Shown here: positions 19,083 through 25,298 of the stretch, piece after piece
Position numbering within the stretch: the stretch's first letter is position 1
Layout of the letters: each line of letters begins with the position of its first letter
Assembly (NCBI GenBank): GCA_963695545.1
Contig: OY968796.1
Location: 1,984,001-2,048,000, forward strand
Length of the DNA: 64,000 bases
Reading direction: 5' to 3'
DNA from: Terriglobia bacterium
GTDB taxonomy: Bacteria; Acidobacteriota; Terriglobia; Acidiferrales; UBA7541
The notes under the pieces: model-generated
What the model was told of the DNA's origin: nothing
What the model saw: only the letters and a program-made list of their open reading frames with translations
Database searches by the model: none
Program-made: the position numbers and the translations under genes

Positions 19083-19296
19083 TTGGCAGAATCCTCGATG
19101 CCGTGCAGATTTTTGCCCGATCCCAAAACCATGGGAACGGGAAGCGCCGAGCGGGCACGGTTTCTCCAAGCCGAATGGAGCGCCCGGCGGGAAACTATAG
19201 TTTGAAGGATTTGCGAGCTTCGCGCAACCCGCAAGATGGGGAATTATATACATGACTCCCGTAAGGAAACAAGGGACTTTAAGGGCGATTATGGAC

Positions 19297-19344
19297 TTGA
19301 CAAAGTAACGCGAATCTGGTAGCCTCTGTGTAGTGAGGCTGCCA
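19297..19344 (+). promoter_or_regulatory. Transposase promoter and RBS-sequestering hairpin
   Basis: TTGACA (19297-302)-17 bp-TAGCCT (19320-25). TGGTAGCCTC (19317-26) pairs with GAGGCTGCCA (19335-44), which covers the RBS and the A of ATG. Confidence 0.6.
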
Positions 19345-20327
19345 TGAACCTAATAGACGTTACACGAAAGTTCGCCAGCAAGGAATCCTGCTTAGAGTAT
19401 CTCGCCGCGATGCGCTGGCCGAATGGTATCACGTGCACACACTGTGGCGTTGTGGGCGACGATCAATTCCGCAAGTTCACGACACGCGAGACTGAGCGCA
19501 CTCGATTCAGCGCGAAGAAACAGAAGACGGTCACCGTCCGCGTGCCGTCGCGCAGCCTGTACGAGTGCAAGGGATGCGGCTATCAATTCAGCGCGACCAC
19601 GGGCACGGTGTTCCACGATTCACACTTGCCGCTCGAAAAGTGGTTTATGGCGATTGCCCTGATTCTTGAAGCGAAGAAAGGAATCAGCGCCCTACAGGTC
19701 TGCCGCAACCTCGGAATCCCTGAGAGTAGCTACCGGACGGTCTGGTATCTCTGCCATCGCATCCGTGAAGCCACACAAGAGACCGGCTTACTATCCGGCA
19801 TCGTTGAGACGGACGAGACCTATCTGACGCCTAAGAAGCCCCGCAAGGGCGCTCCCAAGGTCAAGAAAGACAAGCGAGACGTGGTGCTCGGAATGATCGA
19901 ACGCGGCGGTCGGCTGCGAATGGTTCCGATGCGAGACGCGAAGATGTCGATAATCGAGCCGATCATTGCGAAGCACATCGCTCCCGATGCCACGCTGCAA
20001 ACCGACGAACATCCCACATACGCGATAATCGGCAAGCGCCGCTTTCCCGGCAGGCACCGCGCGATCAATCACATGCGCAGTTACGCGGACGGCGACAATA
20101 CGACGAACTCAATTGAGAATGCGTTTTCGTTGCTCAAGCGCGGCGTGTACGGCACGTTCCACAAGGTTTCGATAAAGCATCTTGGCCGGTACTGCAACGA
20201 GTTTTCGTATCGGTTCAACCGACGCGGGAATCAGTCGGAGATGTTCGGCGAGACCGTGAAGGGATTGCTAAAGGGCCAGCCGTTGCCGCTCAAGAAGCTG
20301 ACTGCTTCCGAAACATCGGAGTCTTAG
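19344..20327 (+). CDS. IS1595-family DDE transposase
   Basis: RWPNG..CTHC...CKGC Zn ribbon, KKGISALQ HTH, VETDETY, LQTDE, TNSIENAFS and HL.RY..EF.YRFN motifs. Confidence 0.95.
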   Translation: MNLIDVTRKFASKESCLEYLAAMRWPNGITCTHCGVVGDDQFRKFTTRETERTRFSAKKQKTVTVRVPSRSLYECKGCGYQFSATTGTVFHDSHLPLEKWFMAIALILEAKKGISALQVCRNLGIPESSYRTVWYLCHRIREATQETGLLSGIVETDETYLTPKKPRKGAPKVKKDKRDVVLGMIERGGRLRMVPMRDAKMSIIEPIIAKHIAPDATLQTDEHPTYAIIGKRRFPGRHRAINHMRSYADGDNTTNSIENAFSLLKRGVYGTFHKVSIKHLGRYCNEFSYRFNRRGNQSEMFGETVKGLLKGQPLPLKKLTASETSES

Positions 20328-20445
20328 GGCCGCGCTTGCCGGAAGTTTTTATATCGCTTTGCGGCTTCGGCTTTGAGCCGAGCAGCGCCGCGAGCACCGC
20401 GTCAAACTTCTTCTTTTCGACCAGCACGCTTTTCTTTGTTTTCAT
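20290..20445 (-). CDS. Small basic protein (51 aa), convergent with and overlapping the transposase 3' end
   Basis: MKTKKSVLVEKKKFDAVLAALLGSKPKP...; amphipathic helix plus basic tail. Confidence 0.45.
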   Translation of the reverse strand: MKTKKSVLVEKKKFDAVLAALLGSKPKPQSDIKTSGKRGPKTPMFRKQSAS

Positions 20446-20503
20446 GAGTTTTCCACATCCTGAATGGATTTCCACAGCCATGTCGGAAAAATCCGGTAGT
20501 GAC

Positions 20504-20776
20504 TCATTTTGAATTGGGCCTTTGGGACAGGTGGCAGGGAGTCTTGTGGACGCCGGAGACCGGACGTGTGACATAAAACACGGGTTCGACGGCGGAAATC
20601 TGCTTAACCAAGAAGGGGGCCAACTGGAACTGCTTATAGCCCTCCTTCAGGGCATCGTCATACGAAGAAAAGAAGTCCACAATAGTTTCCCCGTGAATAA
20701 GCACGAACTTGCCCTCGTGCGCTTTCAGCTCGGGGAGGTTCTTCCGGTAGGTTTCCAGCTCTTTTTCTAAGGCCAT
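20504..20776 (-). CDS. Small passenger protein, DUF5678-like
   Basis: LEKELETY...HEGKFVLIHG..IVDFF.SY.DAL..GY..F...PFLVKQI pattern; the stop codon lies inside the TIR. Confidence 0.6.
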   Translation of the reverse strand: MALEKELETYRKNLPELKAHEGKFVLIHGETIVDFFSSYDDALKEGYKQFQLAPFLVKQISAVEPVFYVTRPVSGVHKTPCHLSQRPNSK

Positions 20777-20871
20777 CTTGGCACCAGTTGTTGTCACTTT
20801 TATACCTCAGATGCCAGAAGAGATGCGGGGATAGTACAAAACGGTTTCTCTGGGCGCAACACCAATTTGCC

Positions 20872-21720
20872 CTACGCGGCCTTCTCTTTCGACATCTCCA
20901 TTATACGCACCAGCTCCTCAATTGTCCAAACGTGGTCCGAGACTCCCGCTTCCATCGCAGGGGTTACACGTAGTGTTTGATGCACGCGGCAGAAGTTATA
21001 GTGCATAAAGTGGAGTGCCACGGCCCAACGGTGATTGTCTAGCTTCTTAGAGAACGCATTTGTGAGCCGGGTAAAACGGCGCATCTTCATCCGCATAGTT
21101 AGGTTCTGGCGTTCCACGAAGCTGGTAGAAATGTGCTTTGGATTCGGCTGACCTACAATTTTGGTTTGTCTGCACCCGATATAGTCTGCGGGACTATATC
21201 GGACTTCTCCTTGTGCCCGATCTGAGCCGTACATCTTGACGAGCATCGCGTAGTCAATCTCAGTACCGAATGCGAATTCAACCGCCTGCAAATAGGCTTT
21301 GTGACCATCGCTGGTCAACTGCACGCGATTGGCAAGGCGCGAAGCCAAGTCGTACATGAAATGCTGCGCGTGCCAAGCGTTGCGGTCACCGATTCGCCAG
21401 CAGGGAACCAACTTTGTATCCGCGCAAATAGAAACCCAGGTCCACACGTCGCCGAACCCATGCTTGCCGCGCAGATCGTTCGGCACGTTCTTTTCTTTGG
21501 CATAGCAGAAGGACCAGATTTCATCGCACTGGACGCGCTTGCAGGGAAGATTAACCAACACGCGGCGCTGGTATTCTTCGCAAGCTTGGCCAATCGCTGG
21601 CATGAGCTTTAGGACAGTATTAAAAGCCACATCGCACATACGGGCCGTGGCTCGTAGTGAGTTCCCTTCTACGAGTGCCGAGATGATCTGCGCTTGCTTC
21701 TCTTTGTTTAAGCGATTCAT
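20872..21720 (-). CDS. IS1-family DDE transposase (single ORF, HTH plus DDE)
   Basis: EGNSLRATAR HTH, QCDEIWSF, TSDG...Y, TSFVERQNLTMR..MRRFTRLT..FSKK and TPAM motifs. Confidence 0.92.
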   Translation of the reverse strand: MNRLNKEKQAQIISALVEGNSLRATARMCDVAFNTVLKLMPAIGQACEEYQRRVLVNLPCKRVQCDEIWSFCYAKEKNVPNDLRGKHGFGDVWTWVSICADTKLVPCWRIGDRNAWHAQHFMYDLASRLANRVQLTSDGHKAYLQAVEFAFGTEIDYAMLVKMYGSDRAQGEVRYSPADYIGCRQTKIVGQPNPKHISTSFVERQNLTMRMKMRRFTRLTNAFSKKLDNHRWAVALHFMHYNFCRVHQTLRVTPAMEAGVSDHVWTIEELVRIMEMSKEKAA

Positions 21721-21728
21721 AATGTCTG

Positions 21729-21758
21729 ATTATGCTTGAGCGGCTCAAGGTGTGTCAA
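21729..21758 (-). promoter_or_regulatory. IS1 transposase promoter with internal palindromic operator; leaderless ATG
   Basis: TTGACA (21753-58)-18 bp-CATAAT (21729-34). CTTGAG-CGG-CTCAAG lies in the spacer; the ATG is 8 nt downstream of the -10. Confidence 0.65.
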
Positions 21759-21924
21759 GAGAAAAACGCAGAATCTTACGAACACTTGGCGCTCACTAAG
21801 TGCTGTACTGTCAATACGATGTGGATACACCTGCGTAATATCCGCAGGGTGCTCTGCAAGTTCGGCGTGCTAGACTAAGTCTTCTCTGCTAGAATCGGCG
21901 TGTCTGATACGGACATGGAGGTTC

Positions 21925-22446
21925 ATGGTCATGGATGATAAACTAAGTGGCGCTGTCGAAGTGCTGGTCGCGCAATTGAACGATCAAATGAAACAAGTGG
22001 CTGACACAAAAAGCACGATCAACGCGCTATTACGAAGTATGGGGAAAGAGGCGATGTTTCAGGATGTAAACGTGGAACAAGCGTCCGCGATTCGTCCAGA
22101 CCAGTTCTACGGAAAGGGTCTCGCAACTGCTGTTCAGGACTATCTCAAACGGCGAAAGCAAGCGTGCGGAGCGGATGAAATTCTCCGGGGACTAGAACAA
22201 GGTGGTTTTGATTTCCGCTCAGTATCATGGAAGGAAGCTGATCGTCGTCGGAGTCTATCAATCTCATTGGCAAAGAACAGCGTCACATTTCATCGGCTTC
22301 CCAACGGGACATTCGGTCTGCTGAGTTGGTACCCTGAGAATATTGGGAAGCAAGAGCCGCCAGCAAACAAAAAGCGCGGGCGGAAAGCGAAGAAGGCCAA
22401 GCCATCGGCTGAGGACGCTACAAAGCCTGAACAGGGGAAACCATGA
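21925..22446 (+). CDS. Passenger protein: N-terminal coiled coil plus winged-helix (HARE-HTH-like) domain and basic tail
   Basis: GGAGG RBS; FHRLPNGTFGLLSWYP resembles the wing motif of HARE-HTH/RNAP delta N-terminal domains. Confidence 0.6.
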   Translation: MVMDDKLSGAVEVLVAQLNDQMKQVADTKSTINALLRSMGKEAMFQDVNVEQASAIRPDQFYGKGLATAVQDYLKRRKQACGADEILRGLEQGGFDFRSVSWKEADRRRSLSISLAKNSVTFHRLPNGTFGLLSWYPENIGKQEPPANKKRGRKAKKAKPSAEDATKPEQGKP

Positions 22447-22518
22447 CCAGAAGGGATATGTGCCTAGATTGCCGGACGCCGTGCCTACCGAGCAGCCTAG
22501 GCCAAATTAAAGACAAGA

Positions 22519-22557
22519 CCCGCTTCCAGTAACCTTTGCGGGGGAGCTGGAAGCGGG
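22519..22557. terminator. Hairpin between convergent passenger genes
   Basis: CCCGCTTCCAG (22519-29) pairs with CTGGAAGCGGG (22547-57). Confidence 0.4.
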
Positions 22558-22598
22558 CCGTGGTAGGACGCAAAGATCGCGGCCATGAACCGTCGCGA

Positions 22599-22835
22599 TT
22601 ATACCTTTTTTGTTGACCAACGTGCCTTAGCTGCTTTACGGGCGATGGCCTTTCGCTTACTGGCGGAGAGACGCGCCGCTCGCGCCTTTCCGCCTTTAAG
22701 ACCACCTTTGCGCCCGATCTGGGCGAGATACTCTTTGACGGATGCTGTCTGTCTTGGTTCTTCTGTGGATAGCCGTACGATCTCAGCGGCCAGTTGATTT
22801 GGGTCTTTCGGGAGCGGCTTGCTTGAGCGCCTCAT
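22599..22835 (-). CDS. Small highly basic protein of the type found beside IS1-like transposases
   Basis: PKDPNQLA..IV...T and GRKGGLKGGKARA..LS...R..IA.KAA.ARW motifs. Confidence 0.8.
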   Translation of the reverse strand: MRRSSKPLPKDPNQLAAEIVRLSTEEPRQTASVKEYLAQIGRKGGLKGGKARAARLSASKRKAIARKAAKARWSTKKV

Positions 22836-22967
22836 GCATCACATGATGCACAATTCTTCGGGGCGTTTCAAGCCCCCTAAAAGCTCAAAATGAGTCACTA
22901 CCAAAAATCCGCTTGCAATTTCATTCGTATTCTCTTCGCCTACCCCTGACTGAAACGCAAGCAAGGC

Positions 22968-22997
22968 TTGACAGATTTATCCCGAACAGCGTAGATT
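22968..22997 (+). promoter_or_regulatory. sigma70-type promoter of the RNA cluster
   Basis: TTGACA (22968-73)-18 bp-TAGATT (22992-97); no credible ORF follows for about 530 bp. Confidence 0.6.
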
Positions 22998-23003
22998 GCA
23001 CCC

Positions 23004-23105
23004 TAGTAACAGCGACGGCCCACCACCCCAAGGGGTAGTGAGCCGGTTGCTGCTGCCACGCTAGCACGTGGCGGAAGTTCTGGGCGCATGCTACCGAGAA
23101 TTCCG
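23004..23105 (+). ncRNA. Structured RNA, three consecutive hairpins, unknown class
   Basis: CAGCGAC-GGC-CAC-ACCCC/GGGGT-GTG-GCC-GTTGCTG; GCCACG/CGTGGC; GGAAgTTCT/AGAATTCC. Confidence 0.45.
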
Positions 23106-23147
23106 TTCCTCGTCAACGTGGTTTCCGAATTTATTTTTTGTCGCACG

Positions 23148-23214
23148 GGGGGCGCCAGGTAGGGGACGTCGGTTTCCCACCCATTTCCCCTGGGTTCAAA
23201 TCCCAGCGCCTCCA
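23148..23214 (+). ncRNA. D-armless tRNA-like RNA with alanine identity (resembles the tmRNA tRNA-like domain)
   Basis: Acceptor GGGGGCG/CGCCTCC with G3:U70 and A73. T-arm CTGGG-TTCAAAT-CCCAG. Only 35 nt between the acceptor 5' strand and the T-arm; no D-stem; no encoded CCA. Confidence 0.6.
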
Positions 23215-23231
23215 CCCATGCGACTTTCAAC

Positions 23232-23325
23232 GGCGGGATAGCTTTAACGGTAAAGCCCCGGATTTATAATCCGAGGGTCTCCATGCGTACACATGGAGAT
23301 GTCAGTTCGACCCTGACTCCCGCCG
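23232..23325 (+). tRNA. Irregular tRNA, anticodon UAU, long variable arm (Ser/Sec-like body)
   Basis: Acceptor GGCGGGA/TCCCGCC with G73. D-arm GCTTTA-ACGG-TAAAGC. Anticodon arm (C)CGGA-TT-TAT-AA-TCCG(A). V-arm GTCTCCATG-CGTACA-CATGGAGAT. T-arm GTCAG-TTCGACC-CTGAC. Confidence 0.88.
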
Positions 23326-23530
23326 TCAAACTTTTAAGGACACTAGGAGAACGCACCTGATTTCGGATTGGAAACAAAGGTCTGCATCGAGTCTCCCCAA
23401 CCCCGCGTCGCCGGGATTGCCTGACTTGGCTGGTACCAGCCGAGCACCCGGTACCGGCTCTGACTGTATATGGTATCACTATAATTTCGTCAAGGGAAAA
23501 CGATATGTCTCGTATCACACCGAGGTCAAC

Positions 23531-23867
23531 ATGATGAAACGCGTTTTTTTCTCGGCCTTAATCGCAGTTTGCATTGGTCAGGCTCCGCTTCTCGCGCAGG
23601 TGCGGCCTCCGGGTCGGCACCATCGAGACGACTTAGAACAGCGATACAACGATCTCAAATGTGCGCTCGTGATCGTTCAAAATGGGGGCGAATTCGGGAC
23701 AGGAGTTTTCATTGGCTCGGACGGAGATATTGCGACTGCCTCTCACGTCCTGGGCGACCGTACGTTCACATCTCAGGCCGACGGGACGATAACGACAAAC
23801 CTTGCGTTGCCCGCGTCACTCACCGTCATCGACAGCCAAGGAAAATCGACTACGGTGCCGGGAACAT
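23531..23867 (+). pseudogene. Secreted trypsin-like serine protease, 3'-truncated by IS3
   Basis: GAGG RBS, signal peptide MMKRVFFSALIAVC, GTGVFI...IATASHV (catalytic His motif); the Ser motif is absent. Confidence 0.75.
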
Positions 23868-23932
23868 TGACCTGACCGGGGTTTTTTGTACCAGCGGGAG
23901 TGAGAGAGAATTCACTCTGGAGGGAAGCTGGT

Positions 23933-24211
23933 ATGCCGATGAGGAGATACAAGCCGGAGCAGATCGTCACGCTGCTGCGGCAAGTTGAAGTTGAAATCGC
24001 CAACGGAAAGAGCACCCCACAAGCCTGCAAGGAAGCCGAGATCACCGCGCAGACCTACTACCGCTGGCGGAAGGAATACGGCGGCCTGAAGTTGGATCAA
24101 GCGAAACGCCTCAAAGAGTTGGAGCGGGAAAACGCCAAGCTGAAACGGTTGGTGGCGGAGCTTTCGTTGGAGAAGCAAATTCTGAAGGATGTGGCAGAGG
24201 GAAACTTCTAA
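23933..24211 (+). CDS. IS3 transposase OrfA
   Basis: HTH (TYYRWRKEYGG) and leucine zipper (LKELERENAKLKRLVAEL); ends in the slippery heptamer G GGA AAC (24199-205). Confidence 0.92.
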   Translation: MPMRRYKPEQIVTLLRQVEVEIANGKSTPQACKEAEITAQTYYRWRKEYGGLKLDQAKRLKELERENAKLKRLVAELSLEKQILKDVAEGNF

Positions 24212-25077
24212 GCCCTGAGCGGCGACGTAGCGCGGTGGAGCATGCACGCGAGAGCTACCAAGTATCAGAGCGGCATGCCTGCCGGTTGCTGGGGCAGTGG
24301 AGAGGGACACAACGCTACGAGGTGATCCACCGAACGGATGAAGACGCGCTGACGCGAGACATCGTGGCGCTGGCCAGCGAGTACGGGCGCTTCGGCTATC
24401 GGAGGATCACGGCGCTGTTGCAAGCACGGGGCTGGTATGTGGGCAAGGATCGGGTGCAGCGGATCTGGCGGCGCGAAGGGCTGAAAGTGCCGCAGGGACA
24501 AAGGCCGCGAGGAAGGCTGTGGTTGAACGACGGATCGTGTGTTCGTCTCCGGCCGGAACGAGCCAACCATGTGTGGAGCTACGATTTCGTGAGCGCGATG
24601 ACCCACGACGGCCGAACACTGCGAATGCTGACGCTGATCGACGAATACACGCGGGAGTGCCTGGCGATCCGCGTGGCGAGAAGGCTGGGGAGATACGAAG
24701 TGATCGAAGCGCTGGCGGACGTGATGCTTTACCGGGGAATTCCGGAACATATTCGCTCGGACAACGGCCCGGAGTTCGTGGCCAAGGAGCTGAGGAGTTG
24801 GCTGGCGAAGGTGGGAACGGGGACGCTGTACATCGAACCGGGAAGCCCTTGGGAGAATGGCTACTGCGAAAGCTTCAACGGGAAATTGCGCGATGAATGT
24901 TTGAACGGAGAGATTTTTTACTCGCTGAAGGAAGCGCAGATCGTGATCGAGAAATGGCGGATGGTGTACAACACGCTGCGTCCGCACTCAGCGCTGGGCT
25001 ACAGGCCACCGGCGCCGGTGGCCTGTAGCCCCTTGGTGCCGCCAATTCTCGGTTCGCCGTCGACGGCTGTGATGTAG
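24199..25077 (+). CDS. IS3 transposase OrfB, fused to OrfA by a -1 frameshift
   Basis: The -1 frame reads GKLLSPERRRSAVE... into the ORF at 24235; WSYDF, SDNGPEF, PWENGYCESFNG and RPHSALGY motifs. Confidence 0.92.
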   Translation, partial: GKLLSPERRRSAVEHARESYQVSERHACRLLGQWRGTQRYEVIHRTDEDALTRDIVALASEYGRFGYRRITALLQARGWYVGKDRVQRIWRREGLKVPQGQRPRGRLWLNDGSCVRLRPERANHVWSYDFVSAMTHDGRTLRMLTLIDEYTRECLAIRVARRLGRYEVIEALADVMLYRGIPEHIRSDNGPEFVAKELRSWLAKVGTGTLYIEPGSPWENGYCESFNGKLRDECLNGEIFYSLKEAQIVIEKWRMVYNTLRPHSALGYRPPAPVACSPLVPPILGSPSTAVM

Positions 25078-25298
25078 ACTCTCTCATTCACCGTGGTACA
25101 AAAACTCGGGCTGGTCATAAGGACAAGCCTAAATCAAGGGAGTCAACTATATAATTCCCGCAAGATGCGCGCGCGTGACGTGATTCAAAACCAATTTGGT
25201 CGCACGCTGGCGCGACGTGGCTGACGGTCGCCAACCGCGGGCGCGTCCGGTACAATAAATGGCGTGAACCCATCGATAGAAAACGCATAGGAGCTGCC

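Follow-up and report, generated by a model that had tools for sequence, protein, structure and literature searches.

A predicted serine tRNA with the anticodon UAU is carried by an IS1595 clade in Terriglobia and may set how often its own element moves

Comparison across related elements indicates that the tRNA gene with the anticodon UAU at 23232..23325 of the window (by which we mean the whole stretch of 64,000 nucleotides of Terriglobia DNA analysed here) is part of a transposon-borne codon-anticodon system, which is without description in the literature that we searched. By this comparison the tRNA is cargo of a clade of IS1595 elements, here in a member of the Terriglobia; it travels with the element, and its anticodon covaries with in-frame codons of that element which are not treated as isoleucine codons. 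Our preferred reading, which we consider rather probable, is of a private and switchable code, in which the element's serine tRNA would reread AUA (or UUA) codons that are locked into the genes for the transposase and a small antisense protein, setting the rate of jumping.

The features of the element and its surroundings, in window positions except for the last, are these:

19239..25159, no strand: outer MITE-like shell, with 22-nt inverted repeats (19239-19260 and 25138-25159) and an 8-bp target duplication
19284..19305, plus strand: left terminal inverted repeat of the tRNA-bearing IS1595 element
19344..20327, plus strand: IS1595-family transposase, 327 aa, with ATA at codons 4, 203, 228 and 277 (NF033547, 174.9 bits, cut-off 75)
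20290..20445, minus strand: small Lys-rich antisense ORF, 51 aa, with ATA at codon 32 and no family match, overlapping the 3′ end of the transposase gene
20495..22902, minus strand: nested IS1-like element between the transposase and the tRNA cassette, with 18-nt inverted repeats and an 8-bp target duplication
22968..22997, plus strand: putative sigma-70-like promoter of the tRNA cassette, TTGACA-18-TAGATT, 10/12 consensus matches
23004..23147, plus strand: hairpin-rich leader (z -1.9), not conserved in the related elements L095 or L183
23148..23218, plus strand: degenerate tRNA-like unit directly upstream of the tRNA (z -2.2), with acceptor and T arm kept and D and anticodon arms rearranged
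23232..23325, plus strand: 7/5 long-arm tRNA (ARAGORN, Rfam), anticodon UAU, G73, CCA not encoded; predicted serine acceptor
23531..23867, plus strand: truncated passenger gene, weakly trypsin-like (E 4e-4, below cut-off)
23868..25117, plus strand: IS3-type element with nine copies in the genome, here without a target duplication
G000:C1:344769-344860 (L001:7770-7861), minus strand: second long-arm UAU tRNA of this genome; its D arm is tRNA-Ser-like, and the IS1595 copy around it is intact, both ends being present

The transposase combines a Zn-ribbon (PF12760) with a DDE domain (PF12762) and scores above the NF033547 cut-off, which places it in the IS1595 family. The right terminal inverted repeat was not found within the 64-kb window, and paired terminal repeats are present in the genome's second copy and in 62 relatives; a deletion adjoining the IS3-type element probably removed the right end here. 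The repeats at 19239 and 25159 were considered as the ends of the IS1595 element and rejected, as they belong to the outer MITE-like shell. At many loci a CTTTAAG-like sequence, duplicated on insertion, often adjoins these elements, suggesting a preferred target; in the window it lies at 19273-19283, within the shell. Within the IS1595 element the order is promoter, hairpin leader, degenerate tRNA-like unit and UAU tRNA, and the promoter search found four sigma-70-like sites versus 0.4 in shuffles. The slot of the degenerate unit varies among elements, a same-strand partner tRNA being called within 250 nt in 14 of 80, with many anticodons. The nested element, whose match to the IS1 model falls below the model cut-off, carries three passenger ORFs without a family match; ATA occurs once in its transposase, at codon 273, and the element itself yielded no tRNA call.

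The second IS1595 element of this genome has a transposase 93% identical to that in the window, and its long-arm UAU tRNA is very different and oppositely oriented. Elsewhere in the genome we saw a tRNA-Ser-like gene with a UUCG-capped hairpin in place of the anticodon loop (G000:C1:2260191-2260283; L002:4192-4284), and a second tRNA-Asn(GUU) (G000:C1:1625451-1625526) and a second tRNA-Gly(GCC) (G000:C1, c3387331-3387405) of atypical sequence, which are possibly mobile cargo.

Linkage of the tRNA to this family was assessed on 161 transposase ORFs (155 after removal of near-duplicates, two loci of unpublished genomes having been left out), beside 80 of which ARAGORN called a UAU tRNA. Together with L167 (from our own scan) and L195 (its anticodon called only as 'ta') these form a set of 82 elements. 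In a tree of 123 rows, where rows without a tRNA were kept only if they had at least 3 kb of downstream DNA, one well-supported transposase clade of 72 rows held 67 with UAU, one with UAA, one with UAC and three with none. In all 62 elements in which both tRNA and repeats were found, the tRNA is enclosed by the terminal repeats; the figure for a later batch was 18 of 20, with three flagged as duplicates. These element counts overstate the number of events, because the relatives are not independent. Searching in the reverse direction, with a model of the tRNA over 101 genomes, we found that 11 of the best 30 loci were UAU tRNAs, of which 10 have the transposase within the 3-kb locus. Named relatives come mostly from Acidobacteriota MAGs; a search with the tRNA region through the DNA of 61 relatives gave short T-arm matches only, plasmid matches were all distant, and two pattern scans of viral contigs found none.

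Both ARAGORN and Rfam RF00005 (50.2 bits versus a cut-off of 29) call the gene as a tRNA, and its fold is stable (MFE -46 kcal/mol, z -6.2), with none of 200 shuffles equally so. The features that the first-pass annotation had read from the letters are all present: a 7/5 cloverleaf (7-bp acceptor stem, 5-bp T stem, 12 of 12 branch pairs) with the anticodon UAU, G1-C72, G2-C71 and C11-G24, a mismatched C27.A43, G73 followed by TCA rather than CCA, and an 8-9-bp variable stem, which we resolve as eight Watson-Crick pairs and one G-U in a variable region of 26 nt. It had also pointed to a D stem extendable to 6 bp with a four-nucleotide loop, as in tRNA-Sec. This copy does have such a stem (loop ACGG), but its three nearest same-subtype copies (L183, L095 and L272) carry a C.A mismatch there, and the Sec-like stem is therefore not conserved. 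The hallmarks of tRNA-Sec given in the available text of PMC9976931 are an 8/5 branch, the anticodon UCA and an EF-Tu-rejecting box C7-G66/G49.U65/C50-G64; the window tRNA has a 7/5 branch, UAU and A7-U66/G49-C65/U50-A64.

The bacterial serine determinants listed in the same text, namely a long variable arm, G73, G1-C72 and G2-C71, are present in full, G73 being there also an antideterminant for LeuRS and TyrRS (PMC9976931). Set against the isoleucine identity set (A73, C4-G69, C29-G41, the U12 pair and an IleRS able to read U34), the molecule fits only in U12-A23, and does not in G73, G4-C69 and G29-C41; A37/A38 are found. The missing CCA is no barrier, because the host's only tRNA-Thr(UGU) is also without an encoded CCA.

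This picture extends to the relatives, whose tRNAs sit in either orientation and at varying distances. Among 79 parsed cargo tRNAs, 67 have a 7/5, 10 an 8/4 and two a 9/3 fold, while a variable region of 16-26 nt and G1-C72 occur in all 79, G2-C71 in 78 and G73 in 70; A73 is found in three, C4-G69 in 10, and an encoded CCA is absent from 42. Within the 7/5 set, for which pairing was itself part of the parse, a single cell of the acceptor and T stems is unpaired and the pairs are of many types; positions 27-43 are unpaired in 23 of the 67 bodies. The C27.A43 mismatch and the absent CCA are common to same-subtype copies, which show compensatory stem changes. The best ordinary matches of the tRNA model are tRNA-Ser, ahead of Tyr, Met and Leu. 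Freely drifting anticodons and broken stems, which the first-pass annotation had named as signs against its reading, are not what we found: the anticodon of cargo tRNAs of this type is UAU except for one UAA and one UAC, and the acceptor and T stems are paired. Judged from these determinants, unrelated tRNA bodies have kept serine identity. The comparative evidence supports the proposal that this is a serine acceptor reading AUA, charging and decoding being predicted.

Some further tRNA calls deserve mention here. Calls of 86-89 nt with the ochre-reading anticodon UUA are carried by these same elements in L095, L114 and L250, in L095 and L250 beside the UAU tRNA. At L275:5553-5737 (G033, minus strand) a long-arm G73 tRNA with the Asn anticodon GUU is followed by a degenerate unit resembling that at 23148-23218 of the window; this GUU tRNA is a possible Asn-to-Ser counterpart.

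The codons of the transposase show the other half of the system. The window copy has exactly four ATA codons, including codon 4, in keeping with the minimum of four counted in the first-pass annotation. Over the 82 elements, ATA makes up all of the isoleucine codons at column 4 (74/74), column 277 (71/71) and column 228 (56/56), while among nine control codons the best columns never rise above 22/32. Five transposase columns together hold ATA 262 times, versus ATC three times and ATT never; at 17 Ile/Val columns of the core (14 chosen by rule and three added by hand) the same elements have six ATA versus 751 ATC or ATT, although GTA makes up 64 of 311 Val codons there. The 40 tRNA-less elements have eight ATA versus 222 ATC or ATT at these core columns. 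ATA is locked at five columns yet nearly cleared from the core, and therefore ATA and ATC/ATT are not synonyms here. Columns 203 and 244 alternate between ATA and Ser codons (18/82 and 21/82) and also Thr codons; standard Ser codons are absent from columns 4 and 277 and occur in 2/82 at column 228. Four of the five locked sites fall in the first turn of predicted helices. In passenger ORFs ATA forms 18% of isoleucine codons versus 25%.

A DNA or RNA motif as the cause of the conserved ATA was considered and rejected: the conserved ATA follow the reading frame (74, 71 and 56 at the top columns, versus 24 and 15 out of frame) and the switch described below occurs at three separate codons. In a column likelihood test isoleucine was rejected for the ATA of the clade, with K, R, A, T and V ranked above S, and the same test on outgroup ATA returned isoleucine. 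The locked sites look tolerant of both readings rather than Ser-requiring.

Codon and anticodon also switch together. L118, nested in the UAU clade, carries a long-arm G73 tRNA with the anticodon UAA, and its transposase has no ATA and instead TTA at 4, 228 and 277. Among 201 protein homologues the residues at these three sites are III in 176, LLL in eight and mixed I/L in three, and column 244 is Leu in four of nine LLL rows and in none of the III rows. The UAA-type codons and anticodon are known as DNA from this one locus, the eight others being protein sequences (P0122-P0124, P0126, P0127, P0129, P0131 and P0192); the genome loci that we examined as DNA contained no further UAA/TTA element. 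ATA is kept at codon 4 without a detected tRNA in L123, L148, L152, L200 and L203. We also observed L139, which has a UAC tRNA of the family with ATA at codons 4, 203 and 228 and ATG at 277 (which may reflect decay or an ongoing switch), and four elements (L180, L136, L133 and L172) in which column 228 is Phe and ATA stands at column 225, as if the codon had moved three positions.

The small antisense ORF looks coding, its third positions being the most variable. Of its 2,668 codons 95 are ATA; they are found in 58 of 60 elements, at columns where V, L, I or M otherwise stand; this is an enrichment of approximately 20-fold at hydrophobic columns. In L118 this ORF has GTA instead of TTA.

The host itself appears to decode AUA in the standard way. 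As the first-pass annotation had supposed from local genes, ATA is rare: 1,684 of 925,551 codons, or 1.8 per 1000, in 2,128 ORFs picked by our own codon model and covering 67% of the genome. The tilS gene, for which that annotation had proposed to look, is present, as are three CAU tRNAs and the SerRS gene serS. The host IleRS has the motif Arg-Cys-Trp, the Trp-type form that rejects UAU according to the available text of PMC3575796. At 942 host ATA codons in paralogue alignments the aligned residues are I in 26%, V in 21%, L in 20% and S in 2.3% (host ATC gives S in 1.5%); a genome-wide reassignment of ATA to Ser is not supported, host ATA behaving as isoleucine in these alignments.

Tree neighbours without a tRNA have ATC at codon 4, and derivatives that lack the tRNA are present in two genomes. 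A 1.3-kb tRNA-deleted derivative is present in G1150 in four copies (L266-L269), 99.8-99.9% alike and with intact ends, a tRNA remnant being visible in the G1150 copy; this hint from copy number comes from one short lineage, whose shortness alone could explain it. A UAU tRNA was not found in G1150 by two patterns (sensitivity 45/78 and 58/78), nor among all 16 model matches (150 of approximately 2,170 candidates scored). In G901 a derivative of 1.3-1.4 kb has three copies (L241, L249 and L274), and a tRNA-bearing element is also present. Since the derivative multiplied in G1150, Ile forms of the proteins seem functional without the tRNA.

We propose that the tRNA would be transcribed from the element's own promoter and trimmed, with CCA added by the host, and that host SerRS would charge it via the long arm, G73, G1-C72 and G2-C71, ignoring the anticodon. 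The serylated tRNA would then vie with the host's lysidine tRNA-Ile2 at AUA, giving Ile or Ser by tRNA dose. The element retains two to six AUA codons at fixed, mostly helix-start positions of a transposase with a nearly AUA-free core, and one to four at hydrophobic positions of the small antisense protein. Reading as Ile by the host would give active proteins; reading as Ser would leave the transposase folded but weaker and the small protein crippled. The Ser-form transposase may be a weak or inhibitory isoform, which would fit the cleared core; as a point against the model, such clearing suits a need to protect the transposase more than it suits a plain kill switch. The tRNA would act in trans, and a UAA/TTA switch would escape the brake of resident UAU elements.

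Self-regulation, which the first-pass annotation had listed among its alternatives, is the better reading, as the selected codons lie in the element's own genes and switch with the anticodon. The comparison shows the linkage, the codon locking, the co-switch and the identity elements; we infer expression, serylation and decoding by the element tRNA and, less surely, the sign of the control. To the specific proposal that AUA-to-Ser reading acts as a dose-dependent brake on the element's own transposition we would give slightly less than an even chance; we favour it over other signs of control because tRNA-less tree neighbours have ATC at codon 4 and the tRNA-less derivative still reached four copies. 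Against this proposal stand the published failure of six CUA-converted allo-tRNA(UAU) to suppress a Ser amber codon in E. coli (PMC5389517), the likelihood ranking of K, R, A, T and V above S, the lack or rarity of Ser codons at columns 4, 277 and 228, the exceptions L139 and the five elements with ATA at codon 4 but no detected tRNA, the single DNA locus behind the UAA type and the GTA of its small ORF.

The sign could be the reverse, the serylated tRNA speeding the decoding of AUA at codon 4, with a fully active Ser transposase and an inhibitory small protein that is crippled by Ser. The swaps with Ser and Thr codons at 203 and 244, the cleared core, the predicted first-turn placing of four of the five main sites, the many ATA codons at V/L/I/M columns of the small ORF and the coexistence in G901 of one tRNA-less lineage with a tRNA-bearing element would all agree with such a switch. 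We nevertheless think it unlikely, given the four near-identical tRNA-less copies in G1150, where the searches above found no UAU tRNA; it also leaves unexplained why none of 74 codons at column 4 has gone from ATA to ATC, though ATC would free expression.

Decidedly less probable is that a poorly charged or poorly delivered tRNA occupies AUA and causes pausing or peptidyl-tRNA drop-off, chiefly at codon 4. Codon 4 is the most invariant site, the ATA columns fit no amino acid well and positions 27-43 are often unpaired (23/67); moreover, when six allo-tRNA(UAU) were changed to CUA, none suppressed a Ser146TAG CAT and two were lethal in E. coli (Mukai et al., NAR 45:2776, PMC5389517). A real change of residue is, however, indicated by the clearing of ATA from core Ile columns and its exchange with Ser codons, the Ser determinants are retained in unrelated bodies, and for a UAA allo-tRNA the available text of PMC5389517 reports insertion of Ser in E. 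coli.

Harm to AT-rich invaders was the main purpose proposed by the first-pass annotation: the tRNA would damage phage or plasmid proteins rich in AUA, ATA in the element itself being tolerated or trapped. We now regard this as very unlikely, since the codons under selection belong to the element, in its genes for the transposase and the small antisense protein. Rarity of ATA in the host, its slightly lower use in passenger ORFs and a co-switch that trapped codons could account for all speak for it, but a weapon would purge the approximately 20-fold ATA enrichment at hydrophobic columns of the small ORF, and codon 4, which takes Ile in tRNA-less relatives, never relaxes to ATC beside the tRNA.

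Supply of isoleucine, with the tRNA charged with Ile and feeding the element's rare AUA codons, was another listed alternative, and is hardly to be expected given the scarcity of A73 (3/79) and C4-G69 (10/79), a host IleRS of the UAU-rejecting Arg-Cys-Trp type, and a host already holding tilS and three CAU tRNAs. ATA is, besides, not interchangeable with ATC/ATT, and the UAA/TTA lineage could not keep Ile by such a route. In favour of this alternative are A37/A38 and U12-A23 in this copy, and the hydrophobic ATA sites of the small ORF. That the window copy is a decayed, inactive passenger, as its lost right end, two insertions, C27.A43 mismatch and missing CCA might imply, is scarcely credible: it has an intact promoter and an uninterrupted transposase frame, same-subtype copies with compensatory stem changes show both the mismatch and the missing CCA, and CCA is likewise unencoded in 42/79 cargo tRNAs and the host's only tRNA-Thr(UGU).

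Several natural tRNAs invite comparison with this one. It resembles the allo-tRNA(UAU) of soil Acidobacteria in its anticodon, long arm and G73, and those too have been recorded next to a transposon-related ORF and within irregular tRNA polycistrons, according to the available text of PMC5389517; the 8/4 cargo tRNAs of L191, L197 and L246 resemble, by eye, the delta9-10 rows of that paper. Allo-tRNAs have there a 12-bp acceptor branch folded as 8/4 or 9/3, a long variable arm, G73 or U73 and a Sec-like long D stem closed by a tetraloop, whereas the window copy and 67/79 relatives are 7/5 and 12/79 are 8/4 or 9/3, and the 5′ ends of the 7/5 cargo tRNAs had no matches in the available supplement sequence table of PMC5389517. 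The available text makes no tie to transposase codons and left the function open in 2017; together with the available part of a review (PMC7609411) it suggests only an association with transposons or toxin-antitoxin systems. Like the Streptomyces tRNA-ProA/ProN/ProT (PMC10404621, available text), the window tRNA joins the body for one amino acid to the anticodon of another, but those have a dedicated ProRS and act proteome-wide, whereas our element has no synthetase and the selected codons are in its own genes. The nematode nev-tRNA-Ile(UAU) shares a long arm, a non-Leu/Ser anticodon and charging by body identity (predicted here), but is eukaryotic, has Leu identity and, in the available text of PMC3333845, comes with no description of mobile-element codon coupling. 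Mycoplasma mobile tRNA-Ile2(UAU) also reads AUA with UAU, but it accepts Ile, and its host lacks tilS and has an IleRS of the Arg type, whereas the window host has tilS and the Trp type (PMC3575796, available text). The window tRNA is close to the allo-tRNA class but by its fold outside it.

Insertion sequences are known to limit themselves with devices that throttle transposase translation, such as RNA-OUT of IS10, Inh of Tn5 and frameshifting in IS1/IS3, and in Streptomyces the bldA/TTA system gates a rare codon by one tRNA. To our knowledge none of these uses an element-encoded tRNA that alters the amino acid at a sense codon, and the literature searched, with most subscription papers outside the search, gave no description of an IS-encoded tRNA tied to transposase codons.

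Sense-codon reassignment is usually viewed as genome-wide or stress-wide. The comparative signal here suggests that two genes of a single mobile element are the target of reassignment, the code of the host being standard. If this is true, two protein forms would be made from one gene, swaps of codon and anticodon would create new exclusion groups, and the most abundant, so far unexplained, class of allo-tRNA would be explained. Our proposal would thus offer allo-tRNA(UAU) a function and insertion sequences a new route of self-regulation, and these elements may supply natural Ser-body tRNAs for the rare AUA codon.
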